The translations under genes and the position numbers were made by a program. Of a stretch of DNA of 64,000 nucleotides, positions 1,164-57,909 are shown in pieces; position 1 is the stretch's first letter; every line of letters begins with the position of its first letter. The DNA is from an uncultured virus (IMG/VR IMGVR_UViG_2630968701_000003). Taxonomy: Duplodnaviria > Heunggongvirae > Uroviricota > Caudoviricetes. The stretch lies in the IMG/VR virus record IMGVR_UViG_2630968701_000003, one strand, 5' to 3'. Under the pieces are notes generated by a model that worked only from the letters and a program-made list of their open reading frames with translations, was not told the origin of the DNA and made no database searches.

Positions 1164-1264
1164 GTTTTAAGGCTGCGTGACTAGACTGATTCCAAAGGTT
1201 ATGATGACTTGGACATTGAAAAGGTAAGGTTTTAGAATTGTGTAAATAAGAATGATTCCAAAGG
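1164..1264 (+). CRISPR. mini-array 1: two divergent type II-like repeats, one 30-nt spacer
   Basis: R 1164-1198 gttttaaggctgcgtgactagactgattccaaagg; spacer 1199-1228; R 1229-1264 gttttagaattgtgtaaataagaatgattccaaagg. Confidence 0.75.
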
Positions 1265-1345
1265 GTCAAAATGGCTACATAGAGAGTAAAAATAAGAATT
1301 ATATTTATCGAATTGGCTTGTGTAAACAAGAGCTGCTAGGTGCAG
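1265..1345 (+). ncRNA. tracrRNA-like tail fused to last repeat of array 1
   Basis: gtcaaaat..acatag (pairs with ttgtgt using G-U pairs)..gtaaaaataaga..atcg; hairpins cttgt-gtaa-acaag and ctgc..gcag. Confidence 0.8.
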
Positions 1346-1377
1346 TTAATAAGAAATATGAGGAGGAATTATAGAAA

Positions 1378-2397
1378 ATGATAAGAAATAAGATTGTGAA
1401 AGACGATATCATCGTCAGAAAATCTATTTTACATATATTAAACAGTGGAAGTGGACAGATTGGATTAGCAACTAATCTGATTGATATGGGACCAGATTTG
1501 TTTGATATGATCAGAGATAATGTATTTAAAGTCTTGGATAATGATGAAAGAATCAGCTGCAAGCTGGATAAAAATACATCGGTTGCAAAGGCTATTGAAA
1601 ATCTCAAAGAAACAAATGATCAGAGCTTTATCGATACGACAAGAAATCTGGCTGAACAGTTGTTTGATATCATGTGTGATAGTGTTCAGATTCCGTCAGC
1701 AGATTTGCTTTGTGCTAGTTTTCAGGTAGATGGCAATATTTATCTGGCATTGCTAAAAATGAATTATCACTCAACATTTGTTCATTATCAGAACAAAGAT
1801 GATGTGACAGATATTGTAAAACAAAATGTTATCCAGTCTGGAAAGTTGACAGAAGCAGTGATTTTTGATCTTTCAGGTAAGAAAGATGTTTATTTAGTTC
1901 AGAAAAAATATGAAATGTTAAATGGAGAAAAATGCAATTACTTATCAGAACGATTTTTAATATGCATGGCAGGTCTTCCACCAAAGAAAAAATTTCAGAT
2001 TTTAAATAGAACAATAATGGATCTTATCAATCAGAGCAGACAGGATGGATTAAAGGCACAATTTCATACGAAAAAGGCATTTTATGATTGCTTTGTGGAA
2101 GATGGAATATTTGATATTAATAAGATCGGTTCTGAATTATTCAAAGATAACGGAGAAAATCTTTCTATCTATGATCAGAAGATGGAAAGATATGATATGC
2201 AGTTTGATAAGTTCGCTGTTATCAAAGAAAGTACCGTTAGTAAGTTGAATTATCTGGAAATGGAAACAGACACAGGAATTATCATTAAAATTCCAATGGA
2301 AACATTTAATGAAGCTAATATCGAAATTAGTGAGAGTCAGATGGATGGAACTACTTCATTTGCAATCAACAATATTGAATCATACAAGTTAAAGTAA
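1378..2397 (+). CDS. nucleoid-associated protein (NdpA/YejK, NA37 family)
   Basis: ILHIL N-terminus, YLALLKMNY and ETDTGIIIKIP motifs, 339 aa, typical of Bacillota NA37 proteins. Confidence 0.7.
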   Translation: MIRNKIVKDDIIVRKSILHILNSGSGQIGLATNLIDMGPDLFDMIRDNVFKVLDNDERISCKLDKNTSVAKAIENLKETNDQSFIDTTRNLAEQLFDIMCDSVQIPSADLLCASFQVDGNIYLALLKMNYHSTFVHYQNKDDVTDIVKQNVIQSGKLTEAVIFDLSGKKDVYLVQKKYEMLNGEKCNYLSERFLICMAGLPPKKKFQILNRTIMDLINQSRQDGLKAQFHTKKAFYDCFVEDGIFDINKIGSELFKDNGENLSIYDQKMERYDMQFDKFAVIKESTVSKLNYLEMETDTGIIIKIPMETFNEANIEISESQMDGTTSFAINNIESYKLK

Positions 2398-2424
2398 AAC
2401 AAATCAGAGAAAGGGGATGTTTTT

Positions 2425-2661
2425 ATGTTAATTTACTTAGCTGATAATAGATCGACGGTTATCAATTTACAATGTGTAGGAGATATGCATATCGAAAAAT
2501 CAAGACATGGATGGGAAATAAAATGTGAAATGTCCTCTGTATCTGGTTTTGGAACAACGACATGCAGTCTCGGATGTTTTGCTTGTAAAGAAAACGCTGT
2601 ATCAAAAATTTTAGAGATATTAAAGTGTTATGGTGAAGGACAAAAAGTTTATTATTTATAA
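2425..2661 (+). CDS. hypothetical protein
   Basis: AAAGGGG RBS, ORF track. Confidence 0.6.
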   Translation: MLIYLADNRSTVINLQCVGDMHIEKSRHGWEIKCEMSSVSGFGTTTCSLGCFACKENAVSKILEILKCYGEGQKVYYL

Positions 2662-2665
2662 AAGA

Positions 2666-2958
2666 GAATAGTAACCGTACAACAGAGATATGTCTAAAGA
2701 CAAAATAAAATTTCTGAAAAAGAAAGGCGTTTTGTAACCGTGTAACGCGGACATGCCTAAATGTACTGTTGCATTTCCTGAACGTCAATTTGAGTTTTGT
2801 AACTGTGTAATAGGAACATGTCTAAATAAAAAATATCCGTGAAAATTCTTGGAGTTCAGTTTTGTAACTGTGTAATAGGATCATGTCTAAATAAGGAATG
2901 GGAGATGGTCCAGAAGCAACATAGTTTTGTAACTGTGTAATAGGATCATGTCTAAATA
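2666..2958 (+). CRISPR. mini-array 2: 35-nt repeat gttttgtaactgtgtaataggatcatgtctaaata, 5 repeats (2 degenerate), 4 spacers
   Basis: repeats at 2666-2700 (degenerate), 2729-2763, 2794-2828, 2859-2893, 2924-2958; spacers 28, 30, 30, 30 nt. Confidence 0.93.
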
Positions 2959-3040
2959 GTCAAATTATTTTGCACAGTGCGTAAAAATAAGAATGAAATA
3001 ATCGAATAGACTCGTTAAAACGAGAACTGCCGTGTGGCAG
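2959..3040 (+). ncRNA. tracrRNA-like tail fused to last repeat of array 2
   Basis: gtcaaat..tgcacagt (pairs with actgtgta)..gtaaaaataaga..atcg; hairpins ctcgt-taaa-acgag and ctgcc-gtgt-ggcag. Confidence 0.85.
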
Positions 3041-3077
3041 GAAATATTTTCAAATAGCTGAGAAGGGAGAGTGCTTT

Positions 3078-3485
3078 ATGTATATTAAAGAATTACATGT
3101 AAATCATCCAAATTCTTATGCGGTTGTGCATATGAGTTATGGTGAAATTACTGCTCTTGCAAATGGAATGTACGAATTAGTATCTAATTTAGAGCTGTTG
3201 AAAGATTCTTTTGACTCAAAAGCTTATAAAGAAGTTGAGCAGAAAATTTCTTTTGTAAGAGACATGGTAAAAGATGGGATGATCCAACCATATACGATAG
3301 AAAGAGCGAGCAAAACTTCGCTGACGAAAGAAGAATTTGAGCGATTCAATCAATATTTGATTATGAATGACTATATGATGGCAATGAGTGATCCGGAATT
3401 TTGTAAGATATATAAGAAAATTTCAAATAATAATCGAATTCCGGATGATTTTCGTAACAAGATGCCAGATGAAAAGAAAGAATAG
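3078..3485 (+). CDS. hypothetical protein
   Basis: AAGGGAG RBS, ORF track. Confidence 0.65.
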   Translation: MYIKELHVNHPNSYAVVHMSYGEITALANGMYELVSNLELLKDSFDSKAYKEVEQKISFVRDMVKDGMIQPYTIERASKTSLTKEEFERFNQYLIMNDYMMAMSDPEFCKIYKKISNNNRIPDDFRNKMPDEKKE

Positions 3486-3500
3486 GAAGGGAATGAAAAA

Positions 3501-4742
3501 ATGGAGAAAGAAAATAAACGATTACAATTTGCACAAAAAATCGGAATGACGATTTTATTATTACTTTTAATTCGATTCATGTCACATATTCCAGTGCCAG
3601 GTGTGAAACACAGTATGTTCAAGCTTGCTGTTGCAGGGAAAGGAAATGGTTATTTTCAGTTATATGATCGCCTGACAGGTGGAAGTTTTTCAAATATGAC
3701 AATCTTTGGTGCTGGTATTACGCCTTATATCACAGCAAGTATTGTTGTTCAGTTACTTGGATATACGTCTAAAAGGCTAAATCAAATGTATCATGAAGGA
3801 GAGTACGGTCGGAGACATATGCAGAAAATGACATTGTTAATCAGCTGTATTACGTCTGTAATTATTTCTTTTACTGCATCTTATACACTTTATGCACAGG
3901 GATATTTAAATGGAAAAATTTATATTCTTTTTGCTGGGTTAACGTTAATGATTGGAACCTTGATTTTAATCGGTATCGGGAAATGGATTGAACTTCGATA
4001 TTTTAAAAATGGTATTTCTTTAGTTTTATTCATTAATATTATTGCTTCAATGCCGAATGATGTATTAACAATCATCTCTTTAAAAAAATGGGAAACGGCA
4101 ATCTTAATTGCAGTAATTTTAATTACATTATTTGTTTTATTGATCATGGAGTTAATTCGTAAGGAAATCATTGTGAGAGAAAGTGCCCGAGTAGATCAGA
4201 ATGAAGAAGTTATTAAACATTTCTTTATTCCAGTTCGACTTAATATGTTAAATGTAATGCCAATCATTTTTATGAGTACAATTCTACAGTTAGTACAGAT
4301 GTTATCTCTTGTAGGCATTAAAACACAGATTTTTAATACTTCAAAATGGTTTGTTAGTACAAAACCGATTTATATTATTGGAATCATCGTATATTGTGCC
4401 GGAATTTTCTTATTTGGAGTTATGTATTCAGATATTGCCTTTAATCCTTTCACAATTGCAATTGATTTGAAGAAAAAAGCAAGCTATATTCCTGGAGTGC
4501 GTTTAGGAAATGACACATCAAAATTTTTACATAGTGCAAAGACAGGAATGATGCTTTTAGATTCTATTTTATTGACGTTAATTTCTATTGTACCGATTGC
4601 AATTACATCTATTTTAGGATTATCTTCCTTAACAATGTTTGGTACATCATTGGTTATTGTGATTGGTGTATTAGTAGAAACAGCATATCAGATTAAAGCA
4701 GAAGTATATGGCGTTCGTCAGGAGGAAAAACAATGGATTTAA
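3501..4742 (+). CDS. secY: preprotein translocase subunit SecY
   Basis: HIPVPGV, GITPYITASIVVQLL, NGISLVLF, VMPIIF, YIPGVRLG, GTSLVIVIGV motifs; about 10 TM segments. Confidence 0.95.
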   Translation: MEKENKRLQFAQKIGMTILLLLLIRFMSHIPVPGVKHSMFKLAVAGKGNGYFQLYDRLTGGSFSNMTIFGAGITPYITASIVVQLLGYTSKRLNQMYHEGEYGRRHMQKMTLLISCITSVIISFTASYTLYAQGYLNGKIYILFAGLTLMIGTLILIGIGKWIELRYFKNGISLVLFINIIASMPNDVLTIISLKKWETAILIAVILITLFVLLIMELIRKEIIVRESARVDQNEEVIKHFFIPVRLNMLNVMPIIFMSTILQLVQMLSLVGIKTQIFNTSKWFVSTKPIYIIGIIVYCAGIFLFGVMYSDIAFNPFTIAIDLKKKASYIPGVRLGNDTSKFLHSAKTGMMLLDSILLTLISIVPIAITSILGLSSLTMFGTSLVIVIGVLVETAYQIKAEVYGVRQEEKQWI

Positions 4743-4915
4743 AGAAGAAAAAAAATAAAAGTGAAAATATGGCAAAAAATGTTAGGATGACATATCCAAA
4801 ACCCATCAGTTGTATTGTGTCATATATTGTCTTATTGTTCAGTTTAATGTTGATCATGGCAGTTGTGTATGGAATTGATATTCTAGTTGCAACTTTAGCA
4901 AATAAATTTTTATAA
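4733..4915 (+). CDS. secE: preprotein translocase subunit SecE-like
   Basis: 60 aa; VRMTYPK (cf. KVxWP) then one TM ending GIDIL; lies between secY and secA. Confidence 0.65.
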   Translation: MDLKKKKNKSENMAKNVRMTYPKPISCIVSYIVLLFSLMLIMAVVYGIDILVATLANKFL

Positions 4916-4930
4916 ATTGGAGGATTAAAA

Positions 4931-7102
4931 ATGGCAGAAGCAAGACAAGTTAAAAATAGGATTGTTCAGGCTGTATTAAGAGAATGTCAAAAGCTTAAAG
5001 AAAAAGATGATCTTACAGATGAGCTTGAACATGTTAGAGATATAAAGAATAAAAAAGAACGGTTAATCAAAAGTGTTGCATTAGCAAGCGAAGCATCCAG
5101 ACGTACAATCAATATTGAACCTTATCCAGTGCAGATTTTAGCTTCGATTAAGATGTACCAGGGACATGTCATTGAAATGAAAACAGGGGAAGGTAAAACA
5201 TTTGTTTCTCCGATGACGGCCTTTGCAAAAGTATTGGATGGACAGAAGGTACATGTTTTAACGGTAAATGATTATCTTGTAGAACGTGATTACACACTTT
5301 TATTACCGGTATATGAAATGCTGGGATTAAGTGTTGGATATATTACGACAGAGACACCAATAGAAGAAAGAAAAAAAGCATACAAATGTGATGTGTGCTA
5401 CATTACAAATTCTGAGGTTGGTTTTGATTACTTAAAGGATCATTTGGCAATGCATCCAGATTCAGTTGTTTGTAATGGAAAATATGATTTTGCAATTATT
5501 GATGAAGCAGATTCAATTTTAATTGATGAGGCAAGGACACCTCTTATTATTTCAGCAGATACAGAACTTATTAGTGGTTTTTGTATCAGTTGTGCCAAAT
5601 TTGTAAAAACATTAGAACTTTCAAAAGAAACAGAAGAATTAGAAGACACAGTTTATGTCGGAGAGTTCCCTAATGTAGATGGCGATGCTATCCTTAACTT
5701 AAAATATGGACAGGTGTATCTGACTGAAAACGGAGTAAAAAAAGCAGAAGATTATTTTAATGTGGATCATTTAGATAAGTTTATATTACACAGCTTAAAC
5801 AATGCTTTGATTGCCAGATTTATAAAGAAAAAAGGTATTGATTACATCGTCAGAAGAAATGAAATAATTATCGTAGACAATGCTACAGGGAGACTCACAG
5901 AAGGACGCACATGGTCCGATGGATTGCATCAGGCAGTACAAGCGAAAGAAGGAGTAGAAATAGATGCAGCATCAGAAACTGCGGCATCTATTACATATCA
6001 ATGTCTATTCCGTCAATATAAAGATTTTTGCGGCATGACAGGAACGGTCAAAACTGAAAGAAGAGAGTTCAGAAAAATTTACAAAAAGAAGATTTCTGTA
6101 ATTCCTACAAACCGTCCTGTAATTCGTCAAGACCTGCCAGATAGAATCTTTGCTCGAAAAGAAGAAAAATATCAGGCAATTTTGGAGGAAACAAGAAAAG
6201 CTATTGATAAGGGTAGAGCTGTATTAGTTGGTACTGCCAGTGTCTTAACATCAGAAGAATTAAGTGATATTTTTGATGAAAATGACATTGGACATGATTT
6301 GTTAAATGCAAAGCTGCACCGAAGAGAAGCAGAAATTATTGCGGAAGCAGGAAGTAGTGGAAACGTAGTTATTGCAACCAATATGGCTGGAAGAGGTACA
6401 GACATTAAGATTGATGAAAAAACAAGGGCAGCAGGAGGATTACTTGTCATTGGAGCAGAGCATAATGAAGCCAAGCGTATTGACAATCAGTTAAGAGGAC
6501 GTTGCGGAAGACAAGGGGATCCTGGAAGCACACAGTTTTTTGTTTCTTTAGAAGATCGCTTAATTAATCCATATTTATCAAAATCTTATTATGAAGAAAT
6601 GAAAAAAGTAAAAGAAATTGAAAAAAAAGATCCTTTTTCTGGCAACATTATTAGAAGAGTACACAAAAGAATCGGATTACAATACTATTCTAACCGAAAA
6701 GACCTGTTTGATTATGACAAAGTAAATCAGGTGCAAATGCGAGTCATTTACAATGAAAGAGAAAAGATTCTAAATGATGATATGGATCGAGAAACTGTAG
6801 AGCGTATCGCAAAAGAAATGAACATGAAAAAAGAATTTCATGAAGCAATGAAAAGAAAAAAAGACGAAGGAAAAGATACAGTAACCATTCTGCAGGAACA
6901 GAAAAAAGTTTTGTTAAAATCTATTGATAAAGAATGGAGAAAACATCTGCAAGATTTGGAAGCATTAAAGAGAAATGAGTATCTGAAAGCATATGGTAAC
7001 ATGGATCCGGTTACACAGTATCGACTGGATGCTTATCCATTATTTGCAGAAATGGTCGTTAGAGTTAAAAAGGAATTCATGAAAGAAATTTTAAAAGAAT
7101 AA
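4931..7102 (+). CDS. secA: preprotein translocase ATPase SecA (compact, 723 aa)
   Basis: EMKTGEGKT, VHVLTVNDYL, DEADSILIDEARTPLIIS, ATNMAGRGTDI, RIDNQLRGRCGRQGDPG. Confidence 0.97.
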   Translation: MAEARQVKNRIVQAVLRECQKLKEKDDLTDELEHVRDIKNKKERLIKSVALASEASRRTINIEPYPVQILASIKMYQGHVIEMKTGEGKTFVSPMTAFAKVLDGQKVHVLTVNDYLVERDYTLLLPVYEMLGLSVGYITTETPIEERKKAYKCDVCYITNSEVGFDYLKDHLAMHPDSVVCNGKYDFAIIDEADSILIDEARTPLIISADTELISGFCISCAKFVKTLELSKETEELEDTVYVGEFPNVDGDAILNLKYGQVYLTENGVKKAEDYFNVDHLDKFILHSLNNALIARFIKKKGIDYIVRRNEIIIVDNATGRLTEGRTWSDGLHQAVQAKEGVEIDAASETAASITYQCLFRQYKDFCGMTGTVKTERREFRKIYKKKISVIPTNRPVIRQDLPDRIFARKEEKYQAILEETRKAIDKGRAVLVGTASVLTSEELSDIFDENDIGHDLLNAKLHRREAEIIAEAGSSGNVVIATNMAGRGTDIKIDEKTRAAGGLLVIGAEHNEAKRIDNQLRGRCGRQGDPGSTQFFVSLEDRLINPYLSKSYYEEMKKVKEIEKKDPFSGNIIRRVHKRIGLQYYSNRKDLFDYDKVNQVQMRVIYNEREKILNDDMDRETVERIAKEMNMKKEFHEAMKRKKDEGKDTVTILQEQKKVLLKSIDKEWRKHLQDLEALKRNEYLKAYGNMDPVTQYRLDAYPLFAEMVVRVKKEFMKEILKE

Positions 7103-7111
7103 TCAATTTTT

Positions 7112-7152
7112 ATCCCACCCATCGAATTTTTTATGGTGGGTGGGTCTTTTTA
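7112..7152 (+). terminator. putative intrinsic terminator after secA
   Basis: cccaccca...tgggtggg stem followed by T-run. Confidence 0.55.
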
Positions 7153-7229
7153 AAATAATTCCAAGTAAAAATTAGGATAAAAAGGAAAAATATTAAAAAT
7201 AATGCATTGTTAATACTGTTAGCCATGCC

Positions 7230-7353
7230 GTTTTGAAACTATGTTTAATCAAATGATTTGTTATGTAAAATTAGATAATTCCAATAGTATTTTTAATGTA
7301 ACATGATGACGATGAGAGCTTTAGAACTATGTTGAATCAGATAATTCCAATAG
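7230..7353 (+). CRISPR. mini-array 3: truncated/degenerate repeats, one 30-nt spacer, final repeat gctttagaactatgttgaatcagataattccaatag
   Basis: partial repeat from 7230 (gttttgaaactatgtttaatc); repeat 3' half ending 7287; spacer 7288-7317; repeat 7318-7353. Confidence 0.75.
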
Positions 7354-7426
7354 GTCAAATGATACATAGTGTGTAAAAATAAGAAATTATCGAATTGATT
7401 TGCTCAGGCAAAATCTGCTGGTGCAG
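7354..7426 (+). ncRNA. tracrRNA-like tail fused to last repeat of array 3
   Basis: gtcaaat..acatagt (pairs with actatgt)..gtgtaaaaataaga..atcg; hairpins tttgc-tcag-gcaaa and ctgc..gcag. Confidence 0.85.
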
Positions 7427-7505
7427 AAATTAAGTTAATGAATTTTACACCGTACACTTGTTAGTTTATTTGTGTGAGGTTTCAATAAATTATGAATGTA
7501 AGATA

Positions 7506-7673
7506 GAATTATATAACGTTAAAATTGGACAATTTCAAATGTTATTCCAATTATATGTACACACAGCATTCGTTTTGTAACCATGTAAAATTGGGTGATT
7601 CCGAATGAGGCGACCAGCGTATTCCTTTTAATGAAGAGTTTTGTAACCATGTAAAATTGGGTGATTCCGAATG
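7506..7673 (+). CRISPR. mini-array 4: repeat gttttgtaaccatgtaaaattgggtgattccgaatg (36 nt), 2 identical plus 1 degenerate repeat
   Basis: degenerate ~7506-7541; spacer 7542-7571; R 7572-7607; spacer 7608-7637; R 7638-7673. Confidence 0.9.
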
Positions 7674-7749
7674 GTCAAAAAGATTACATGGTGTGTTGAA
7701 ATAAGAGTTTATCGAATGTGCCTACTAAAGTAGGAACTGTCAGGGACAG
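7674..7749 (+). ncRNA. tracrRNA-like tail fused to last repeat of array 4
   Basis: ttacatggt is a perfect 9-bp complement of repeat accatgtaa; ttgaaataaga..atcg; hairpins cctac-taaa-gtagg and ctgtc-agg-gacag. Confidence 0.88.
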
Positions 7750-7887
7750 TAAAAATCTGGATCAGCTGATCAAATAACAATCAATTTATTATCATTCTCG
7801 TTTTATGTTTTTTATATTTTCTATTGATTAGCTTTTCCAGACGAATATCAAAATAATAGATTAGATAACAAAGAAAAGGAGATTAAG

Positions 7888-8358
7888 ATGGTTTATAAGT
7901 TAGTATTAGGCGATTGGTCAAAGGATGGGCATAAACAGTCAGAAGACTTTTTATTTGATTGTAATTACGATGTACACAAAATCAGACAAGCATATAAAGA
8001 CAGCTGCAAAAAATTAGGAGTTGCATTTCATGATGAAGATTATGAGAATTGTACAAAACCTTTGTCTGATGATTACAGTAATGTTTGGACAGATTATGAG
8101 ACCCCATATATTGATGAAACAGATTTTGAAATTCTAAATAAAGCGGGATGTTTTAAGGGAATCGAATATGAGAAAGACCGTGATCGTTATTATGTTAACA
8201 ATTTGAAAGATTGTGCAAAACTTATTATGAATTTTATCGCATTATCTATGCCAGAGGATTTCACATATAAGTTAACAGAATCGGAAATTGAACCAATCAA
8301 TGGAGATTGGAATGGCGAGCTAAATGTACAATTTGGATATGGCTTATTTTTTGATTAA
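7888..8358 (+). CDS. hypothetical protein
   Basis: AAGGGAG RBS, ORF track. Confidence 0.75.
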   Translation: MVYKLVLGDWSKDGHKQSEDFLFDCNYDVHKIRQAYKDSCKKLGVAFHDEDYENCTKPLSDDYSNVWTDYETPYIDETDFEILNKAGCFKGIEYEKDRDRYYVNNLKDCAKLIMNFIALSMPEDFTYKLTESEIEPINGDWNGELNVQFGYGLFFD

Positions 8359-8366
8359 TAGAGAAA

Positions 8367-9149
8367 GTGGGAACGTCAATGAGAGCAAAAGATCAATTAT
8401 ATCAATATGTAGAAAAAAGAAAACAAAAAATCATTGATCAATATGACAGAACATTAGAAAGAATCAATTTGTCGAAGGGTTTCGAAAGCCTGATCTCATT
8501 GATGGGTGATCGAGAAATGTTGCTTTCCATTTATGGAAAATCTTACGATCATAATATAAAAGAGATTCTTGATATTTTTTCATGCATTGTTGATGAAATG
8601 TATCAGGATAATGAATTGTTTCAGAATACAACAAAGGAAATTACACATGGATGTGTCATATATTCCAAAGGAAAATACAGTATTGAATTTCATAGTCCTG
8701 TGGATTGGCAGGGAATTACTGTTCGGTATCATGGAATCATAAAACCTTTCATGGCTGATGCAGAAAAAGATTATTTAAAACGACTTTATAAAGTAAAAGA
8801 GCTAACCCAAAAGGTTATTGATAAAAAGAATCTAAAGGCTTTTATTGATTTGGCTCATTTATTATATGAAAAACCTTATCACACAAAAAATCCAATTACA
8901 CATATAAAAAGGTATTTCAAAGTTTATCATTCCATTCGTGATGGTTTACTTAGAAAGACAATGATAGCAATAGAGACAGGAGAAGAAAGGAAAAGAAAAA
9001 TAGAAAAAGATACAGAATTGTTTTATATACAACAAGAAGAAGCAAAACAGTTAAAGGAAAAAGCAGATGCAGCCTTGGAGATATTTAAAAAATTAGGATG
9101 GAAGATTACCTATAAGGGAATTTTGATAAACGATACGATCTGCTGGTAA
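8367..9149 (+). CDS. hypothetical protein
   Basis: ORF track, operonic. Confidence 0.7.
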   Translation: MGTSMRAKDQLYQYVEKRKQKIIDQYDRTLERINLSKGFESLISLMGDREMLLSIYGKSYDHNIKEILDIFSCIVDEMYQDNELFQNTTKEITHGCVIYSKGKYSIEFHSPVDWQGITVRYHGIIKPFMADAEKDYLKRLYKVKELTQKVIDKKNLKAFIDLAHLLYEKPYHTKNPITHIKRYFKVYHSIRDGLLRKTMIAIETGEERKRKIEKDTELFYIQQEEAKQLKEKADAALEIFKKLGWKITYKGILINDTICW

Positions 9150-9178
9150 AAGAAAGGCAGCGAAAAGGAGGGCGTTCT

Positions 9179-9805: not shown

Positions 9806-9814
9806 AGGGGTATT

Positions 9815-10813
9815 ATGAAAGATTTAATTTTAATTATTGTCAGCATATTATGGTGTATTCCTATTTTAATTTCATTTGTAATTTCCGGTTTACGAGAGAA
9901 ATTAGAATCGGATCGAAATTTTTATGGAAAGGAGATTTCTCCTAAAGATATTGAATTAGTAAAAGTCAGATATAAACCAATTGATATGAAAACTTCTGAT
10001 TTTAGTGAATATAACAAAGATGGAGAGCTTCAATATTTCTACAAAAAAGGAAAGAGTCAAGATGTTGTATATGCTATATCAAAACAGGAATACGATAGAT
10101 ATTTTTTAGAATCAACGGTTGAATCAATTACAGCATATTATCCAGAGTTTATTTTTTCTTATCAGTCAACTAATGGATCAATGAAAGCAACCATCGAATC
10201 TTATAAACCTACAATAGAAAGATATTATAATCCGAAAGATATAGAACAATACAAGAAACTAATTGCTAAGAGATGCGAGAAACAGGTGTTTGCTAAAGTG
10301 CCTGGAAGTCATTTTGAATACAAAGATTGTAAAGGTCAAATAGTTGTACATAACATTGATATTGATACAAAAACAATGCATGGAACGATCACAGGAGAGA
10401 GTAATAAAGAATCTGGAAAATGGGATTACCTTTTCTATGATGAAAGTTGGTATCCACAAACGCAAAGAAAAAAGAATAGGTTTTTATCATTTTGTTCCAG
10501 ACTCGATATGCGTAGATCAGACAATATTTTTACATTGTATTTTACAATAGGTCTTATTTTCACTATTCGATTGATTACAGAAATGATCGTTAATCAAAAT
10601 TCTATGTTAACGATGGACATGAAATTTATTTTACTTTATATGATAGCAGCTTGCCTTTGTTTGATTATTGTAATTTATTTATCAGTGACGATGAAATATA
10701 TTATTGGAAAAATATTTAGTGGGGATGTATTAATTTCAAGTGTTTCTATGCTATTTACAATATATTTTATTGCAAAAGCATTTATGAGATTTGCATCAAT
10801 GATTATGAGTTAA
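9815..10813 (+). CDS. membrane protein, 'DRNFY' paralog family member 1
   Basis: N-terminal TM, REKLESDRNFYGK, GESNKESGKWD, three C-terminal TMs. Confidence 0.8.
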   Translation: MKDLILIIVSILWCIPILISFVISGLREKLESDRNFYGKEISPKDIELVKVRYKPIDMKTSDFSEYNKDGELQYFYKKGKSQDVVYAISKQEYDRYFLESTVESITAYYPEFIFSYQSTNGSMKATIESYKPTIERYYNPKDIEQYKKLIAKRCEKQVFAKVPGSHFEYKDCKGQIVVHNIDIDTKTMHGTITGESNKESGKWDYLFYDESWYPQTQRKKNRFLSFCSRLDMRRSDNIFTLYFTIGLIFTIRLITEMIVNQNSMLTMDMKFILLYMIAACLCLIIVIYLSVTMKYIIGKIFSGDVLISSVSMLFTIYFIAKAFMRFASMIMS

Positions 10814-10872
10814 ATTGCAAGAAGAGTTGAAAGAATCATTGTTAATATAACGGTACAATAAATACATCTATT

Positions 10873-11039
10873 GTTTTAAAAGTCTGTAAAAAATATCGTT
10901 GTAAATGATTGTTAGATGACGATGATCGTTTGATTGAGTTTTAGAAGTCTGTAAAACAGAATCATTGTCGATGATTAGCCATTTGTTGCATATTACGAAC
11001 ATAGTTTTAGAAGTCTATAAAACAGAATCATTGTCGATG
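10873..11039 (+). CRISPR. mini-array 5: repeat gttttagaagtctgtaaaacagaatcattgtcgatg, 3 repeats, two 30-nt spacers
   Basis: R 10873-10907 (degenerate), 10938-10973, 11004-11039; further remnant agaatcattgttaat near 10832-10846. Confidence 0.92.
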
Positions 11040-11116
11040 GTCAAATAATAAACAGACTGTGTAAAAATAAGAATTTTATCGATACTGCTCGCAAAAGCGA
11101 GAGCTGCTAGGTGCAG
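11040..11116 (+). ncRNA. tracrRNA-like tail fused to last repeat of array 5
   Basis: gtcaaat..acagact (pairs with agtctgt)..gtgtaaaaataaga..atcg; hairpins ctcgc-aaaa-gcgag and ctgc..gcag. Confidence 0.88.
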
Positions 11117-11139
11117 CAGATTATGAAAGGAGAAATTCG

Positions 11140-11922
11140 ATGGTTAAGTATTATATTATAATTGGAATTATTTATACAATCCCCTATATAGTCACTATTG
11201 TAATAAGCGGTTTACGAAAGAAGCTAGAAACAGACAGAAATTTTTATGGAAAAACTATAGATATTCAAAAGATAGAACTTACGAATGTAAGTTATAAAAA
11301 GTTTGAAATTGCAAGAAATAATATTAAAAAGTATACAGAAATGGGAGAAATTAAATATGTATATGATCGTAGCTACGATTTTGAAGATGAACGTTTGTTA
11401 TTATCTGAAAAAGAATATCAAAAATGTTTCCCAGACAAATTTGTAAAGACTACGGTTGCGTATTATATAATTTTTGAGTTTTCGTATGAGACTGATCATG
11501 GAAAAATAAAAGCAAAAATTACTCTTACAAAACCGGTAATAGAAAAAACATATAACGATAAAGATGTTGAAGAAATAAAAAAGCTTATTTATGAAGAATG
11601 CAGCAATAAAATATTTGCTAATGTAGGTACAGAAAGCAAATATAAAGATTACAAAGGACAAGAAGTCATACATTCATTACCAATAAGAACATCAACACTA
11701 GAGGGAGAGATTATAGGTGAAAGTAACAAAAGACCAGGGCAGTATGATTGGATGTTTTCAGACAGCAGTTGGTATCCAGAAGAAGCCAAAAAGAGAAATA
11801 GGTTCTTATCTTTTTGTACTTATCTCAACCCAAATAAAAGAAATTCAATATTTTTACCCTATTTTACGATTGGAATATTGGGAATAATAATCAATTGGAT
11901 GTTCAATCTAATTATTAAGTAA
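11140..11922 (+). CDS. membrane protein, 'DRNFY' family member 2
   Basis: N-terminal TM, RKKLETDRNFYGK, GESNKRPGQYD, C-terminal TM. Confidence 0.8.
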   Translation: MVKYYIIIGIIYTIPYIVTIVISGLRKKLETDRNFYGKTIDIQKIELTNVSYKKFEIARNNIKKYTEMGEIKYVYDRSYDFEDERLLLSEKEYQKCFPDKFVKTTVAYYIIFEFSYETDHGKIKAKITLTKPVIEKTYNDKDVEEIKKLIYEECSNKIFANVGTESKYKDYKGQEVIHSLPIRTSTLEGEIIGESNKRPGQYDWMFSDSSWYPEEAKKRNRFLSFCTYLNPNKRNSIFLPYFTIGILGIIINWMFNLIIK

Positions 11923-11953
11923 TTTTAAAATATATGAAAGGAGATAAGAAGAT

Positions 11954-12568
11954 ATGCAATTTACAACACCAGATATGAGGGAAATAACCATTTCAGATAA
12001 ATCAGAAGCATGTGATTTTATAAAGGATTCATGTAAAGAATGTAATAGGAAATATGAATGTACTGGGGAAAACGCAGCATTTTGTAATCATATGAAAAAT
12101 ATCCTTGTAGCAAAGTACGGAGCAGCAGAAGGGTGTTTAAAAGAATCCAGAATTAGGCATAGTATGGGAGTTGCAAACTTCTTATTTGCCTATGCGAAAT
12201 CTCATGACTGGAGTAAGGAAGAGACAGAAGATCTTTATTTGACTGGCTTATTACATGATATAGGATATATTGACAATCCCAAAGGTACGGATCACGGAAG
12301 ATTAGGTGCAGAAATCTTGAAGAGAAATGGACTTAATGCAGAAATTTGCGAATTAATTAGTTGTCATGGAAGATTTATAGAGAACCCAAGTAGAAAGCAA
12401 GCACTTTTATGGCTTGCAGATCTATGCGTGAATCGTGATGGAGACTATATCGGATATCAAAAAAGATATGAGAGTATCAAGGAAAGATATAAGAATGATC
12501 CAGAACGTTTATTTCAAGTTTATCGGATTTTGGAATACTTGCAAATACATTTTTCGGAATACAGATAA
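11954..12568 (+). CDS. HD-domain (HDIG) phosphohydrolase
   Basis: HSMGVA..GLLHDIG..HG..H..LWLAD; Cys-rich N-terminus. Confidence 0.85.
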   Translation: MQFTTPDMREITISDKSEACDFIKDSCKECNRKYECTGENAAFCNHMKNILVAKYGAAEGCLKESRIRHSMGVANFLFAYAKSHDWSKEETEDLYLTGLLHDIGYIDNPKGTDHGRLGAEILKRNGLNAEICELISCHGRFIENPSRKQALLWLADLCVNRDGDYIGYQKRYESIKERYKNDPERLFQVYRILEYLQIHFSEYR

Positions 12569-12730
12569 ATGGTTTGTGTTTATTATGGATTCCAAAGGAT
12601 AAACTGCCGTACTACGTATAGATAAGAGGTTTTAGAGCTGTGTTTAATATGTGGATCCCAAAGGGATTCTCTACAAATACAATGTCGCCTCTACGTTTTA
12701 GAGCTGTGTTTAATATGTGGATCCCAAAGG
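12565..12730 (+). CRISPR. mini-array 6: repeat gttttagagctgtgtttaatatgtggatcccaaagg, 2 identical plus 1 degenerate repeat
   Basis: degenerate repeat ending 12598; spacer 12599-12628; R 12629-12664; spacer 12665-12694; R 12695-12730; 5' GTTTTAGAGCTGTGTT resembles streptococcal II-A repeats. Confidence 0.92.
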
Positions 12731-12807
12731 ACCAAAATATTTTGGCAGTGTGTAAAAATAAGAAAACATCGAAAAGAATCGCTATAGCGAAATCTGCTAT
12801 GTGGCAG
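12731..12807 (+). ncRNA. tracrRNA-like tail fused to last repeat of array 6
   Basis: accaaaat..gcagt (weak G-U pairing with gctgt)..gtgtaaaaataaga-aaaca-tcg; hairpins tcgc-tata-gcga and ctgcta-tg-tggcag. Confidence 0.82.
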
Positions 12808-13006
12808 AAAATTGATAAAGATATGGTTTTACATCAATTTGATATTTCTGAAATTTTTGTTTTTGGATAAATTGTAGTCCAAAACAAAATATCTTCTAAA
12901 TAAGACATAATGTTTAGAAAAGGAGATAAAATATCACGAAAAAGAGATATAAAGTAAAAATAAGGAAAAATAGAAAGTGGAATACATTTTATAGGTTACA
13001 AATTAA

Positions 13007-13061
13007 GTAAAAATAAGATTTTGCCGAATATATTCATATAGATGAATCTGTTATGAAACAG
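13007..13061 (+). ncRNA. orphan degenerate tracrRNA-like tail (no intact repeat upstream)
   Basis: gtaaaaataaga-ttttg-ccgaa; hairpins ttcat-atag-atgaa and ctgtt..aacag. Confidence 0.55.
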
Positions 13062-13090
13062 AAAAAACAAAGGAATAGGAGGACAATAAG

Positions 13091-15421
13091 ATGAGCAGAA
13101 GATTAAAAAAAATTGGCACCGCAATTTTTGATATTGTAGGTTTCATAAATTTTAGATTACAAGAAACAAAAGGAAATTGTTGGATTGATCAGTTATATGA
13201 CAAAGATTATTGGGGAAAAAATAATCAGTCAAAAGAAATAAACAACGAAATCAAAGAATATTTGAATAAAGGATATTCTATGGGATGTGCGGGTCGATAC
13301 ACACATGAACCGTTAGTAGACGTAAATGGAGAAATTGTTAAAATTCAGAATTATTTAGACCAGATGAAATTGCCATGGAATCTTTTATATCAAGACGATA
13401 TTTTAGCAGTCCTTCATTATGGCTCATTCTGTTTTGTCACTCCAAAAGACTATATTACTTCAACATTATTTAAAAACTTAGATGATCAGTCCTTAATATC
13501 TTTAAAAGCAGGCAAGGGAGGAACAGCTCAAACAACGCTGCCAGCAATCTTTCAAAATGAAAATTTATGTAGAAACGATCTTACATCAAATATTGATACA
13601 AAAAAACAAGAGATTCAAAATAAACAGGATGAACTTAAAAATCTGCAGAAAGAAAAAGCAGCAGAGATTGAACGAATGAAACAGGAAATTGAAGCAAAAT
13701 ATGCAGATACCATCTCATTAATAAATAAGAAGAAAGAAGAATTAGAATCAAAAAAAGCAGAACTGGAAGGACAGTTATTTATATATGATACAGAGTTATA
13801 TGCCATTCGTTGCTATTGGGGAGAAACTGTAACTTTTGTTCCGCTAAGAAAAGGAAAACATGCAAATATTGAAGATCCAGTTGTCCTATATCAAAAAATC
13901 CGATTTTTAAATGAAGAATTGGGAAGATATGCAGCAATTTATGATTTTGACGGATCAAAATATAGTAAACATACATTTGAGGAATTATTAAAAATTCGAG
14001 ATGATTTTATGAATATGTTTGCACCTGGTCCGAAATCCATCTCCTTAGTAAAAATCAGCAAGGATGGAACAATTCGCTGCCAGTCCGAAATCCGAAATAA
14101 CATGTTATCAGAATATGAATTACTTCACGGAAACACAATAGCAATTTTGATCAGGGATGGAGAGAATCTTTATATTGGATGGACAGACGATGATAAAGTT
14201 CAGGTTAAAGATGAAAATATGTTTTTGAAGCCAGAGACAAAAGAGATTGCAAGTGAAGATGAAGAAAACATTCGCAATTCTCAAAAAGAAGAGATCGCCG
14301 GAAGATACTTTATTTTTGCGATATTACAGGGAATAGTTGATCAAGGGAAAATCTTAAAGCTTCCAAAGATAGGTTCTATTATGAAGTCAAATCCTTATGT
14401 AATCTATAGTATGGCAGATGGATGGTTAGAAGATGATCGGTTCGGAACACTAGAAGATATCCTAAAAAGAACAAATCATGAAGTTATGAAAAAGGGAGAT
14501 ACCATTTTAACTTTAATGAGGATTACAAGAGATGATAACGGCTATGGATATGGACGGAGAGGTGGTGTCTGGAACAATAATCGTGGACGTGGAGAAGCTA
14601 ATCGTACTCATGATGTATCATTGAAAGATTTCAAATTTTATAAGATAAATAAAGTGGATAAAACCGAATATTATGATGTATTTATGAGAAAATATCCTCT
14701 TGATATCGAGTTTGAAACCATTGAAACGCCAATTAGACCGAATATTACAAACATAGGGCATGTTATCAAAAAGTCTACCTGTTTATGGGATGAAATGGAA
14801 TTAGAAAAAAAAGAAATTCGAGTATTAAATAATCGACTTACTGGATTCACATTAGATGATGAGCATGATCCAACAATAAAACAGGTAATGGAGAGAGAAA
14901 ATGCTGCATCAGATACAGAAGCATTAAAAAAATTTCTACCCAAAAACTATAGATTTGAGACAAAAGATGAGACATATTATGATTCCCGAAGTGATTCTAT
15001 GAAAGGATATCATCAATCTTTGGATCATGTCGCAAATAGTGCTACAGAATATCAGTATTTTATTTCTGAACGTAAAAAATATACGGTAAATTCTACTGCC
15101 AATATGGAAATTAGGGAGGGAGAATACCTTGATATGACATATTTAAACAGTGTCTTAATCCGATACGTGATTCGAACCAAAAAGGTTGGAAATGTATATA
15201 TTGGAGGTACGAAGATTCAGTTTGCAGATATTATTCCTTATTTGAATAAAGCACTTGAATTTTTAGAAGAAAGAGAAAAGACAGAAGCAGCATTATTAAG
15301 ACTGCATATGGACTTATATGAAAACTGGCAGGTAGATGTATCAAGATGGAGATTAGAACATCATTATCATGAGTTGACTGAAACAAGAGCGAAGAAATTT
15401 GCCAAAGAATTTGCAAGATAA
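13091..15421 (+). CDS. large hypothetical protein with coiled-coil segment
   Basis: AGGAGG RBS; heptad-rich aa ~160-230; no recognisable catalytic motif. Confidence 0.8.
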   Translation: MSRRLKKIGTAIFDIVGFINFRLQETKGNCWIDQLYDKDYWGKNNQSKEINNEIKEYLNKGYSMGCAGRYTHEPLVDVNGEIVKIQNYLDQMKLPWNLLYQDDILAVLHYGSFCFVTPKDYITSTLFKNLDDQSLISLKAGKGGTAQTTLPAIFQNENLCRNDLTSNIDTKKQEIQNKQDELKNLQKEKAAEIERMKQEIEAKYADTISLINKKKEELESKKAELEGQLFIYDTELYAIRCYWGETVTFVPLRKGKHANIEDPVVLYQKIRFLNEELGRYAAIYDFDGSKYSKHTFEELLKIRDDFMNMFAPGPKSISLVKISKDGTIRCQSEIRNNMLSEYELLHGNTIAILIRDGENLYIGWTDDDKVQVKDENMFLKPETKEIASEDEENIRNSQKEEIAGRYFIFAILQGIVDQGKILKLPKIGSIMKSNPYVIYSMADGWLEDDRFGTLEDILKRTNHEVMKKGDTILTLMRITRDDNGYGYGRRGGVWNNNRGRGEANRTHDVSLKDFKFYKINKVDKTEYYDVFMRKYPLDIEFETIETPIRPNITNIGHVIKKSTCLWDEMELEKKEIRVLNNRLTGFTLDDEHDPTIKQVMERENAASDTEALKKFLPKNYRFETKDETYYDSRSDSMKGYHQSLDHVANSATEYQYFISERKKYTVNSTANMEIREGEYLDMTYLNSVLIRYVIRTKKVGNVYIGGTKIQFADIIPYLNKALEFLEEREKTEAALLRLHMDLYENWQVDVSRWRLEHHYHELTETRAKKFAKEFAR

Positions 15422-15501
15422 GTTAATTCGGATATCTTTTATAAACGTTAATGTTTATGACAAAAAATGTATCAAAATATTACAATAACTTCAATAATTT
15501 T

Positions 15502-15573
15502 ATCAAAATAGGAAAAGTAGAAGTAAAAATATATTGAAACCGCTCGTCGTTACGAGATTTGCAAGATCGCAAA
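15502..15573 (+). ncRNA. second orphan, highly degenerate tracrRNA-like tail
   Basis: atcaaaata..gtaaaaata..; hairpins ctcgt-cgtt-acgag (same stem as array 2) and tttgc..gcaaa. Confidence 0.4.
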
Positions 15574-15615
15574 AAGCAAACAATATAAAATATCATAAGA
15601 AAAGAGGAATGTTTG

Positions 15616-16785
15616 ATGCATATTGTAGAATCAGGTAAAAGATATAGAATTTTTAATAATGCGATTACCACGTACGATCAACTACCACCAAAAACTTATC
15701 GGGTGGATTATGATCCAGAAACAAGAATTTTTTCTTTACTAGAAGCACACGATTTTGAGATTCCAGAAACAAAAATTTATGGTCAGCATTTAGATAAAGT
15801 CAAGAAAGTGTTGAATTCCATGGATAAGATGAATCGAAATCTTGGAGTAATTCTAAGTGGAGATAAAGGAATTGGAAAGTCACTTTTTTCTAAGTGTTTA
15901 GGATTGAAAGCAAGAAAAAAAGGGATACCTGTTATATTGGTTAATGAATATCATGAGGGGATTGCAAACTTTCTTGAAGAAATTGAGCAAACAGTTATGA
16001 TACTGTTTGATGAATACGATAAAACTTTTGATGAAAAGAAACATAATTGTCAAGCGGAGATGTTATCTTTATTTGATGGAGTAAGTGCAGGAAAGAAACT
16101 GTTTGTGATTACATGTAATGAGATTCAAAGTTTAAGTCAATATTTGATAAATCGTCCTGGAAGATTTCATTATCATTTTAGATTTTTATATCCAACAGCA
16201 GATGAAATTCGTGATTATATGGAAGATAAGTTAGACAAGCAATATTATGATGAAATTGAAAATGTGATTGCTTTTAGTGTACGAATGAATCTTAACTATG
16301 ACTGTTTACGGTCCATTGCTTTCGAACTAAACAATGGATTAAAATTTCAGGAAGCTATTAATGATCTTAATATTATCAGAATAAGTCAGTATAAGAACAT
16401 AAAAATTATTGTAGAATTTGAAAATCAGGCAACATTAAGTGGAAAAATAAAAGAATGGCAGCTGTATGACAATACAATTACTGATATGAGTATATATCTT
16501 CCAGATAATATTCGTCCATTATCTTATGTTGGAGAATATATTGGCGAATTTCCAATGAATTTTTCAAATAACTATATTGATAAGGATAAAAGAATGTTAA
16601 TGTTTCATGTTACAAATCCAGAACCAGAGTATGATATTGCTTATACGCATGAAAGTCAAGATGAAGAGAAAACAGATGAAGGCAAGAAAATTACGGATAT
16701 TTTAGACAAATTATATATTGGACAGAAAATCAAACGTATTTATGCGGTACCGAGTGATCAAAAGGATAAATTTAGGTTTTTCTAA
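15616..16785 (+). CDS. AAA+ family ATPase
   Basis: Walker A GDKGIGKS, Walker B ILFDEYDK, NRPGRF arginine-finger region. Confidence 0.88.
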   Translation: MHIVESGKRYRIFNNAITTYDQLPPKTYRVDYDPETRIFSLLEAHDFEIPETKIYGQHLDKVKKVLNSMDKMNRNLGVILSGDKGIGKSLFSKCLGLKARKKGIPVILVNEYHEGIANFLEEIEQTVMILFDEYDKTFDEKKHNCQAEMLSLFDGVSAGKKLFVITCNEIQSLSQYLINRPGRFHYHFRFLYPTADEIRDYMEDKLDKQYYDEIENVIAFSVRMNLNYDCLRSIAFELNNGLKFQEAINDLNIIRISQYKNIKIIVEFENQATLSGKIKEWQLYDNTITDMSIYLPDNIRPLSYVGEYIGEFPMNFSNNYIDKDKRMLMFHVTNPEPEYDIAYTHESQDEEKTDEGKKITDILDKLYIGQKIKRIYAVPSDQKDKFRFF

Positions 16786-16822
16786 GAATATTATTGATTG
16801 TAAGTATAATTACTGAAAAATG

Positions 16823-16990
16823 GTCTATACGATTAAAGAAACGGAATTATTGTCAATGAATGAATTCGTAAGTTTGTCTAATGTTGTAGTTTTAGAAGAC
16901 TGTAAAACAGAATCATTGTCAATGAAAGGCGGCAAACCACAGCTCTCTACTGCCGTTTTAGAAGACTGTAAAACAGAATCATCGTCAATG
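16823..16990 (+). CRISPR. mini-array 7: repeat gttttagaagactgtaaaacagaatcattgtcaatg, 2 near-identical plus 1 degenerate repeat
   Basis: degenerate 16823-16858; spacer 16859-16888; R 16889-16924; spacer 16925-16954; R 16955-16990. Confidence 0.92.
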
Positions 16991-17063
16991 GTCAAATAAG
17001 CAGTCTGTGTAAAAATAAGAAAGCATCGAAATAATTCGCAAAGGCGAAATCTGCTGGTAGCAG
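16991..17063 (+). ncRNA. tracrRNA-like tail fused to last repeat of array 7
   Basis: gtcaaat..gcagtct (pairs with agactgt)..gtgtaaaaataaga-aagca-tcg; hairpins ttcgc-aaag-gcgaa and ctgct-ggt-agcag. Confidence 0.88.
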
Positions 17064-57900: not shown

Positions 57901-57909
57901 AAATACAAA

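Follow-up and report, generated by a model that had tools for sequence, protein, structure and literature searches.

The window analysed here is a stretch of 64,000 nucleotides from an uncultured virus (IMG/VR record IMGVR_UViG_2630968701_000003, Caudoviricetes) that contains seven short clustered regularly interspaced short palindromic repeat (CRISPR) arrays, each ending in a repeat fused to a tracrRNA-like tail (tracrRNA, trans-activating CRISPR RNA). An original prediction, made from the sequence alone, had proposed that these cassettes encode natural one-piece guides for a Cas9 encoded elsewhere. When the window was read directly and its repeats parsed, all seven were present where they had been described, on the + strand and in intergenic gaps. 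Each holds 2-5 repeats of 35-36 nt, the most 5′ copy of each array being degenerate, and the spacer lengths also agreed with the earlier description (30 nt in 13 of the 14 spacers, 28 nt in the other). Each terminal repeat continues, unbroken and on the same strand, into G(G/A)(T/C)CAAA, a linker of 4-11 nt, an anti-repeat, the element GUAAAAAUAAGA-loop-UCGA and two hairpins.

Cassette 1 (1163-1346) comprises a degenerate repeat (1163-1198), a spacer (1199-1228), the terminal repeat (1229-1264), and linker, anti-repeat, nexus and hairpins to 1346; it scored 63.4 bits with the Rfam model RF03055 and 101.8 bits with R1, a model built in this analysis from whole cassettes. Cassette 2 (2666-3043; RF03055, 70.9 bits) has five repeats, with spacers at 2701-2728, 2764-2793, 2829-2858 and 2894-2923, a terminal repeat at 2924-2958 and a tail to 3043. 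In cassette 3 (7230-7429; RF03055, 70.7 bits; R1, 103.6 bits) a repeat (7230-7265) and a partial repeat are followed by a spacer (7288-7317), a terminal repeat beginning GCTTTA (7318-7353) and a tail to 7429. The remaining four each start with a degenerate repeat and carry two spacers: cassette 4 (7506-7752; spacers 7542-7571 and 7608-7637, terminal repeat 7638-7673, tail to 7752; RF03055, 68.2 bits; R1, 112.5 bits), cassette 5 (10873-11119; spacers 10908-10937 and 10974-11003, terminal repeat 11004-11039, tail to 11119; RF03055, 66.5 bits; R1, 110 bits), cassette 6 (12565-12810; spacers 12599-12628 and 12665-12694, terminal repeat 12695-12730, tail to 12810; RF03055, 68.3 bits) and cassette 7 (16823-17066; spacers 16859-16888 and 16925-16954, terminal repeat 16955-16990, tail to 17066; RF03055, 71.5 bits; R1, 109.6 bits). 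The motif G(G/A)(T/C)CAAA stands directly 3′ of every terminal repeat (1265-1271, 2959-2965, 7354-7360, 7674-7680, 11040-11046, 12731-12737 and 16991-16997), and its CAAA is invariant in 24/24 cassettes of the alignment described below. The motif would fall in the loop of a single-guide RNA (sgRNA), where RNA function should impose no constraint; it may serve as a junction signal when spacers are integrated, or as a processing site. A motif scan for promoter-like sites was uninformative (86 found, 95 expected), while terminator-like sites numbered 14 against 4.6 expected, several of them being the tail hairpins themselves.

When the whole window was scanned with the Rfam gathering cut-offs, RF03055 (RAGATH-30) was the only family matched, eight times, with scores of 60.6-71.5 bits where the cut-off is 59.5. 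The cassette tails account for seven of these matches. The remaining one, on the + strand, is a scaffold tail, orphan or decayed, with no recognisable upstream repeats (12986-13064; RF03055, 60.6 bits at 13007-13064; R1, 39.1 bits at 12986-13062). With R1 the seven full cassettes scored 94-112 bits and two decayed copies 39-40 bits, the second of these being a cassette-like element at 15488-15573 on the + strand (40 bits, E 1.2e-6), whose syntenic site in the nearest complete relative (contig G001) scored 37.9 bits with RF03055, below the cut-off. The seven cassettes and their tails are far beyond chance. A comparison of a model of the tails with the tracrRNA models of Rfam had been suggested earlier; the model that was built recovers all seven cassettes, but the gathering scan gave no match to an Rfam tracrRNA model, and a scan of window positions 1100-3100 at E values up to 1 gave RAGATH-30 alone. 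RF03055 is a 59-nt model, GUAAAAAUAAGAA...UCGAA followed by two hairpins, which is the cassette tail, and its consensus starts exactly at the 3′ end of the anti-repeat. Since the model starts where the anti-repeat ends, the curated RAGATH-30 family corresponds to the 3′ half of the cassettes, without the repeat pairing or the arrays. No published function for RAGATH-30 was found, and the main text of Weinberg et al. 2017 contains none of the terms 'RAGATH', 'CRISPR' and 'tracrRNA'. RF03055 was absent from five arbitrary genomes and from three of the target phages described below; BLAST of cassettes 2, 3 and 4 against GenBank phages gave chance-level matches only (E 0.1-7), and one weak tail-like match in a Ruminococcus phage lay inside a coding sequence. 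A scan of species genomes by the tail pattern returned at least 120 matches, most of them a nonribosomal peptide synthetase motif and none, among those listed, with the hairpins.

The fold was examined in an alignment of 24 distinct cassettes from the window, its nearest relative and sister elements, in which pairs were counted for an sgRNA-like structure. Of 623 cells, 93.4% were paired, compared with 33-49% when the 3′ partners were slid by one to three columns. Both-side (compensatory) changes were seen in 12 of 26 pairs against 2-8 of 26 when slid, and the covariation score of 0.407 (0.04-0.07 slid) was reached by none of 500 shuffles. The lower stem of the repeat:anti-repeat was 98.3% paired. 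The upper stem, formed by repeat positions 9-16 with the anti-repeat, was 86.5% paired, with both-side changes in four of its eight pairs, including A-U/G-C/C-G at one pair; such changes also occurred in five of five pairs of hairpin 1 and three of six pairs of hairpin 2. The lower stem scarcely varies and neither nexus pair changes in any of the 24 cassettes, so these parts are uninformative in this respect. While the repeats differ between cassettes, the tail that would contact Cas9 is constant. G·U cells numbered 55 and A·C or C·A cells 9, and the pairing read as the opposite strand fell from 93.4% to 86.0%; since G·U cells far outnumber A·C cells, the + strand is favoured as the RNA. All Rfam and R1 matches are on the gene strand, and the hairpin loops read as GNRA or UUCG on the + strand only. 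The structure that had been proposed, a Cas9-type scaffold joined in cis to the last repeat, is thus upheld by a covarying repeat:anti-repeat stem with nexus and 3′ hairpins present.

As had been stated, the window contains no cas genes: no Cas domain was found in its 53 open reading frames (ORFs) scanned against Pfam, and tblastn with a Cas9 from a sister element gave nothing better than E 0.82. Among six related records searched with TIGR01865, a full-length Cas9 was found in G408 (200 kb, 782 bits) and G411 (61 kb, 774 bits) and in none of G001, G407, G409 and G410. G408 has its backbone in common with the window, its first 16 kb matching window positions 49705-64000 at ~99%, and in place of the first ~49 kb of the window it has a different island, which holds cas9 and seven RF03055 matches. 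A cassette starts ~100 nt after the cas9 stop codon; six of the RF03055 matches lie within 6.3 kb downstream of cas9 and the seventh ~8 kb upstream. A scan of metagenomes with an alignment of this Cas9 clade as the query returned 80 loci, of which 20 belong to the clade and 60 encode ordinary Cas9 proteins (41-45% identity). R1 matched 73 times in these loci, always on the cas9 strand, with 72 matches downstream of cas9 and one (L234) upstream. Matches were present in 18 of the 20 clade loci, the remaining two of which end at or before the cas9 stop, and in 0/60 loci with ordinary Cas9; because of this difference the RAGATH-30 cassettes are considered specific to this Cas9 clade. The expectation that the Cas9 would be encoded elsewhere on the element or by the host was thus borne out in part: in sister elements the cognate Cas9 lies immediately upstream of the same cassettes, but none is encoded on the nearest complete relative. 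In the cas9-bearing elements, the clade cas9 gene is directly preceded by two ORFs in which Pfam recognises an ATLF (lethal-factor-like metallopeptidase) domain (L216:957-2773 and L237:4016-5833).

The clade Cas9 (P0001, 1312 amino acids) has a recognition (REC) lobe, bridge helix (BH), HNH_4 domain, RuvC piece and PAM-interacting (PI) domain (PAM, protospacer-adjacent motif), of which REC, PI and BH are intact. It is closest to FrCas9 (PDB 9jwk, identified as such through PMC12926199; E 1e-215, 722 bits), then to SpCas9 (E ~1e-135, 454 bits), and matches type II-C Cas9 chains at only ~50 bits. Catalytic residues were compared by HMMER alignments to FrCas9 and SpCas9 and by a MAFFT alignment of 14 of 121 proteins (eight from the clade and six ordinary relatives), with results that agree. 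In SpCas9 numbering, RuvC D10 is replaced by T, E762 by K and H983 by A, S or Y in 8/8 clade members, each of these residues being kept in 6/6 ordinary relatives; D986 is kept in both groups. HNH H840, also kept in 6/6 ordinary relatives, is Y in four of the five full-length clade members, and the HNH domain (742-894), present in the ordinary relatives, is deleted in all three short clade forms shown, so that HNH is dead (H840Y) or deleted in seven of the eight. The reading frame is otherwise whole over the range of 71-100% identity, and 2780 member sequences are gathered in the cluster of the identical protein. By its sequence, the clade Cas9 should be a maintained, RNA-guided, DNA-binding protein that does not cut.

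The spacers turn over. G001 lacks seven of the 14 window spacers, though the flanks are 89-99.8% identical. Strains were compared using eight sister contigs, the source of 36 of the 56 loci that the tail pattern located. In seven of eight cassette families the 5′ units are common to the strains and the scaffold-proximal spacers differ, one family being ambiguous, and the arrays of the cas9-adjacent cassette are nested (s0; s0,A; s0,B; s0,A,B,C). Since the 5′ units are common, the scaffold-proximal units differ and the arrays are nested, new units enter at the scaffold-fused repeat; because each new unit bears that cassette's own repeat variant, integration in situ is argued. The records that lack cas9 (the window, G001, G407 and G409) likewise differ from one another in their scaffold-proximal spacers, again between flanks of 89-99.8% identity. 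In cassette 1 of one sister element (L054) a zero-spacer state was observed, the degenerate 5′ repeat being joined straight to the scaffold tail, which probably arose by recombination between repeat 3′ ends.

Five spacers have matches outside the element family, in viral contigs and at 29-30 of 30 positions. The cassette 2 spacer at 2894-2923 matches 30/30 in four contigs (3′ flank TAAAATC), and a sister-strain spacer of the same cassette (L058) matches a directly adjacent site (GAAAAAT). The cassette 6 spacer at 12665-12694 matches 29/30 in a 47-kb provirus contig (TAAAATC), the cassette 1 spacer of L077 matches 30/30 in three contigs (GAAAATC), and the c10 spacer of L081 matches 29-30/30 in one phage contig (GGAAATC, the spacer/repeat boundary being ambiguous). 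AAA occupies +2 to +4 in 5/5 protospacers, giving a 3′ PAM, in the + reading, of approximately NAAAAT (NAAA(A)T). The target contigs are temperate phages that encode CI/ImmA, Ant, exonuclease, a Gp2.5-like SSB-annealase and DNA polymerase; the sites are in the phage early region, three of them within ~40 nt of a start codon. No self-target was found for the 14 window spacers in the window or in G001, allowing up to six mismatches. A 10-nt 3′-anchored match to the region upstream of the clade cas9 gene, and none longer, occurs in 2 of 36 scaffold-proximal guides, the chance rate being 13/2000 per guide.

The element is filed as a virus with a CheckV completeness of 100%, and its nearest complete relative, G001, is a virus-labelled contig of 221,898 bp that is 88.8-99.8% identical to the window and has 15 RF03055 matches, 12 above the cut-off, in two clusters. 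Pfam was searched with 166 ORFs, the 53 of the window and 113 further ones from G001, and no capsid, portal or terminase family was found among them. The same ORFs include conjugation-type genes (a type IV secretion coupling protein and a TraG/VirB4-like ATPase), surface genes (sortase, LPXTG pilins and adhesins) and matches to ArdA, a ParM-like protein, integrase, ThrRS, clamp loader, clamp, topoisomerase and UvrD. The element also has its own SecY (window 3501-4742) and SecA (4931-7102); the SecA is 41-49% identical to those of 401 Bacillota genomes throughout. By gene content the carrier looks like a ~220-kb conjugative megaplasmid or integrative and conjugative element rather than a phage. 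Twenty public sequencing runs contain the DNA; 11 are assemblies of 3-4 million letters with one organism label from five studies, a distribution in line with a plasmid-like rather than a viral carrier, and the remainder include mouse-gut and indoor metagenomes. Contigs of four of these runs do not cover the G408 cas9 gene, and in two of the four contigs begin exactly at the terminal repeat of the cas9-adjacent cassette. PLSDB has no related plasmid, the sole match being a 60-nt stretch of secA.

Other genes of the carrier were noted in passing. Downstream of cassette 7, at 18681-22440, is a gene pair for an AAA_5 ATPase and a DUF2357 protein, which may be an McrBC-like restriction module, and positions 46392-51215 encode a 1607-amino-acid fusion of an N6-adenine methylase (Eco57I-like) and an SNF2/ResIII helicase. 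G001 encodes an IscB-like protein (Pfam RRXRR and HNH, 470 amino acids) at 74467-75879 on the - strand (L019:14470-15879), more than 40 kb from any cassette, and its TnpB-like and IS200 TnpA genes number two and three, respectively. On the - strand of G001, an IS200-type TnpA gene immediately precedes each of two ORFs, of 503 and 504 amino acids (77930-79441 and 70055-71569), for which Pfam gave no match at E values up to 0.01; they may be cargo of unknown nature or an unknown effector of an IS200/IS605-like unit. At ~103.7-106.8 kb of G001 (L021:3775-6818) is a ubiquitin-like conjugation set made up of a ThiF-type E1, a JAB peptidase and a prokaryotic E2 family D protein.

The guides resemble the type II-A dual guide and the engineered sgRNA, as in SpCas9 and FrCas9, in several respects. 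The repeats start GUUUUAGA; a lower stem, a bulge and an upper stem with an anti-repeat ending ...AAAAU are followed by an AAG-nexus and 3′ hairpins; repeats of 36 nt, spacers of 30 nt and a 3′ PAM are common to both; and the sister-element protein is most like FrCas9, then SpCas9. Unlike type II-A, guide and scaffold are naturally one gene, whose loop is made of the repeat's 3′ half with the conserved GTCAAA linker, and many dispersed mini-arrays take the place of one array and one tracrRNA gene. In 24/24 cassettes the nexus has G-C/A-U pairs in place of G-C/G-C, which agrees with the GA:UC for GG:CC replacement described in the original prediction, and no terminator U-tract follows the last hairpin. 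In contrast to canonical II-A and II-C loci, cas1, cas2 and csn2 were not found and the Cas9 is, judged from its residues, catalytically dead. Spacers in the S. pyogenes and S. thermophilus II-A arrays are added at the opposite end, whereas here they are added at the transcript-distal, scaffold-proximal end.

Parts of the arrangement have precedents. The viral sgRNAs vsgRNA (10.64898/2026.06.01.729453) and rAcrIIA1 (10.64898/2026.06.03.729762) are described, in the portions of these preprints covered, as single RNAs of ~89-111 nt from anti-CRISPR islands of Streptococcus phages and prophages, with ~14-nt guides directed at the cas9 promoter or acting as pure decoys of the host's active Cas9. 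Like them, the present element is mobile and encodes a one-piece chimera of CRISPR RNA and tracrRNA that would be loadable into Cas9; unlike them, it has arrays, renewed 30-nt phage-derived spacers, 7-15 cassettes per element and, within the family, its own dead Cas9. The accessible text of the vsgRNA preprint (10.64898/2026.06.01.729453) does not mention RAGATH, jumbo or multiple vsgRNAs, and, among its passages on arrays listed, none puts one beside a vsgRNA; some overlap of the cassettes with its 170 predicted elements is conceivable. According to the parts of the viral-sgRNA preprint that treat it, tracr-L of S. pyogenes is a host-encoded RNA with no array and a fixed 11-13-nt guide to its own promoter that represses cas9. 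It is likewise a natural RNA in which a repeat-like segment and a tracrRNA fold in cis across a long intervening loop, but the present cassettes are encoded by a mobile element and their guides come from arrays.

Variant II-C2, as outlined in excerpts of Altae-Tran 2023 (PMC10910872) and Makarova 2025 (PMC12669027), is a phage-encoded type II-C Cas9 with inactivated RuvC, apparently active HNH and no CRISPR array, proposed to be an anti-CRISPR and said in the same papers to associate with an SNF2 helicase. The present system is similar in having a Cas9 on a virus-labelled element, dead RuvC residues, no adaptation genes, a tracrRNA-like element nearby and an SNF2-family gene, which in this window is that of the fusion described above. 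It differs in that the protein is II-A-like, HNH is also dead or deleted in 7/8, and mini-arrays with phage-matching spacers follow the gene; it is conceivable, even so, that the two are identical. The plasmid-borne systems IV-A/B, V-C and V-M (Cas12m) are presented in the passages of Makarova 2025 (PMC12669027) consulted as binding-only systems without nuclease activity, often without an adaptation module, which interfere by binding or by blocking transcription. Types IV-A, V-M and V-C therefore follow the same logic of a mobile element with binding-only interference, but descend from type III/I or Cas12, whereas this would be a Cas9 counterpart with cis-fused guides. The 2026 viral-sgRNA preprints and the dead-RuvC Cas9 of II-C2 thus partly anticipate the system.

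The anatomy of the cassettes, their covarying fold and its strand, the Cas9 genes found with them in sister elements, the loss of catalytic residues, the common flank of the phage matches and the polarity of turnover, when considered together, argue that the cassettes are the guide modules of a nuclease-dead, adaptation-less type II variant on a family of mobile elements of ~200-220 kb, each being a self-contained guide-RNA gene. We put the probability of this interpretation at about 0.68. The deadness of the Cas9, the megaplasmid carrier, the PAM-flanked phage spacers renewed by the scaffold and the RAGATH-30 identity all go beyond the original prediction.

Several observations weigh against guide modules of a dead Cas9. 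Neither cas9 nor a remnant of it was found in the window or G001 (TIGR01865 for G001; tblastn with the sister Cas9, best E 0.49-0.82), and because of this the protein partner of these seven cassettes was not identified. The search of the rest of the replicon that had been proposed could be made through relatives and, while it gave the Cas9 of G408 and G411, it found none in G001 and Cas1 (PF01867) in 0/5 related records; no Cas domain was present in the ±6 kb flanks of the clade cas9 gene (L237 and L216), where cas1, cas2 and csn2 were not found. Loss of cutting is deduced from sequence alone, and one clade member (P0021) retains the HNH histidine. Protospacer orientation is mixed among the four sites compared, the two adjacent cassette 2 sites (2894-2923 and L058) and the c10 site (L081) being sense and that of 12665-12694 antisense. 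An outside protospacer was found for three of the seven spacers scanned against IMG/VR, and for none of window spacers 7608-7637, 16925-16954 and 2829-2858 or the L082 spacer. Thermodynamic folding of single sequences is weak, with z-scores of -3.15 to +0.68; the cis stem is in the minimum-energy fold of four of six cassettes and the 3′ hairpins in that of all six. There is also no RNA run among the public sequencing runs listed as containing this DNA.

Three other explanations were weighed. The cassettes might mainly be RNA anti-CRISPRs, sgRNA mimics that tie up or divert an active Cas9 belonging to the host or recipient cell and thereby shield the element as it enters, like vsgRNA and rAcrIIA1. 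Phage sgRNA mimics are reported to inhibit Cas9 by sequestration in the preprint sections seen (10.64898/2026.06.01.729453 and 10.64898/2026.06.03.729762), each element has 7-15 cassette copies while the window and G001 lack their own cas9, other anti-defence genes such as ArdA are present, and the repeats vary among cassettes around a constant Cas9-contacting tail. Such a role is conceivable especially for cas9-less elements entering new hosts. However, a pure decoy needs none of what the spacers show, namely full 30-nt length, phage matches beside a common PAM and renewal between strains. The vsgRNA guides, as far as described in the preprint, are ~14 nt and directed at the cas9 promoter, against a 10-nt upstream match in just 2/36 guides here, and the cassettes co-occur with a dedicated Cas9 clade in 18/20 loci. 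The decoy function offered as one option in the original prediction is for these reasons not favoured as the main role, and we regard it as unlikely. A reading of the cassettes as functionless relics of a lost dead-Cas9 system would fit a window and G001 without cas9, the two decayed tails and the zero-spacer state of one sister record (L054), but is harder to reconcile with cas9-less records whose scaffold-proximal spacers differ between flanks of 89-99.8% identity, with full-length R1 matches of 94-112 bits in all seven cassettes, which is the range of cassettes adjacent to the clade cas9, and with stems preserved by compensatory changes; we consider it quite improbable.

The functional RNA might also lie on the minus strand, as a scaffold-leader followed by repeat-spacer units like those of tracrRNA-dependent Cas12/TnpB-like systems, the flank then being a 5′ T-rich PAM (ATTTTN). 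This would place the newest spacer beside the "leader", the usual polarity of arrays, and G001 does encode two TnpB-like proteins and one IscB-like protein. It is scarcely credible, however, given the excess of G·U over A·C cells (55 vs 9), the better pairing of the + strand, loops that are GNRA or UUCG on that strand only and an Rfam model that matches it. The repeat starts and the tail fit the Cas9 pattern, the cassettes directly follow cas9 on the cas9 strand in 18/20 loci, and no cassette on the same strand adjoins a TnpB or IscB gene. Compared with Cas12/TnpB scaffold-leader arrays, the favoured RNA strand is opposite and the adjacent effector is Cas9.

If the cassettes are guide modules of a dead Cas9, the + transcript would fold on itself, with the first ~16 nt of the last repeat pairing with the downstream anti-repeat (lower stem, bulge and upper stem), a loop made from the remaining repeat and the short conserved linker, and then the nexus and two hairpins. 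Because of this cis fold, the spacer adjacent upstream would be the guide of a natural sgRNA for which no separate tracrRNA is needed. The RNA would be made and used as one piece, and once loaded into nuclease-dead Cas9 (dCas9) it could silence phage early operons, or block early transcription or replication, without a DNA break. Binding without cutting would be safe against integrated prophages, since the host would not be killed. Through entry at the scaffold-fused repeat, the newest spacer would be the one wired into the sgRNA. Integration itself might be carried out in trans by host Cas1-Cas2, perhaps recognising the conserved GTCAAA junction, a step that we purely infer. At its weakest point, the model supposes that a cas9-less element would borrow Cas9 from a co-resident element or from the host.

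Within the portions of the literature covered, a II-A-like Cas9 dead at both nuclease sites, many scaffold-fused mini-arrays, phage spacers, the absence of adaptation genes and a conjugative carrier are not described together, and no mention of 'natural dCas9' or 'RAGATH-30' was found in the literature searched. We tentatively suggest, at somewhat less than even odds, that the system is the Cas9 counterpart of types IV and V-M, plasmid-borne and adaptation-less, in which each new memory would instantly be a single guide without a separate tracrRNA and possibly without RNase III. It would act as an adaptive, programmable repressor of temperate phages whose cassettes could travel protein-free and be serviced in trans. 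If the cassettes are indeed guide modules, the orphan Rfam family RAGATH-30 would gain a function, and the question would be raised of how spacers are integrated at a scaffold-fused repeat without local Cas1-Cas2. Arrays of 2-5 diverged repeats escape ordinary CRISPR detection, so "array-less" Cas9 variants may need to be re-examined. Possible tools include compact natural sgRNA scaffolds and a DNA-binding Cas9 with an A-rich PAM. The arrangement of sgRNA and dCas9 used in CRISPR interference (CRISPRi) would then have a natural parallel, endowed with an adaptive memory and carried by a mobile element that is common among gut bacteria.

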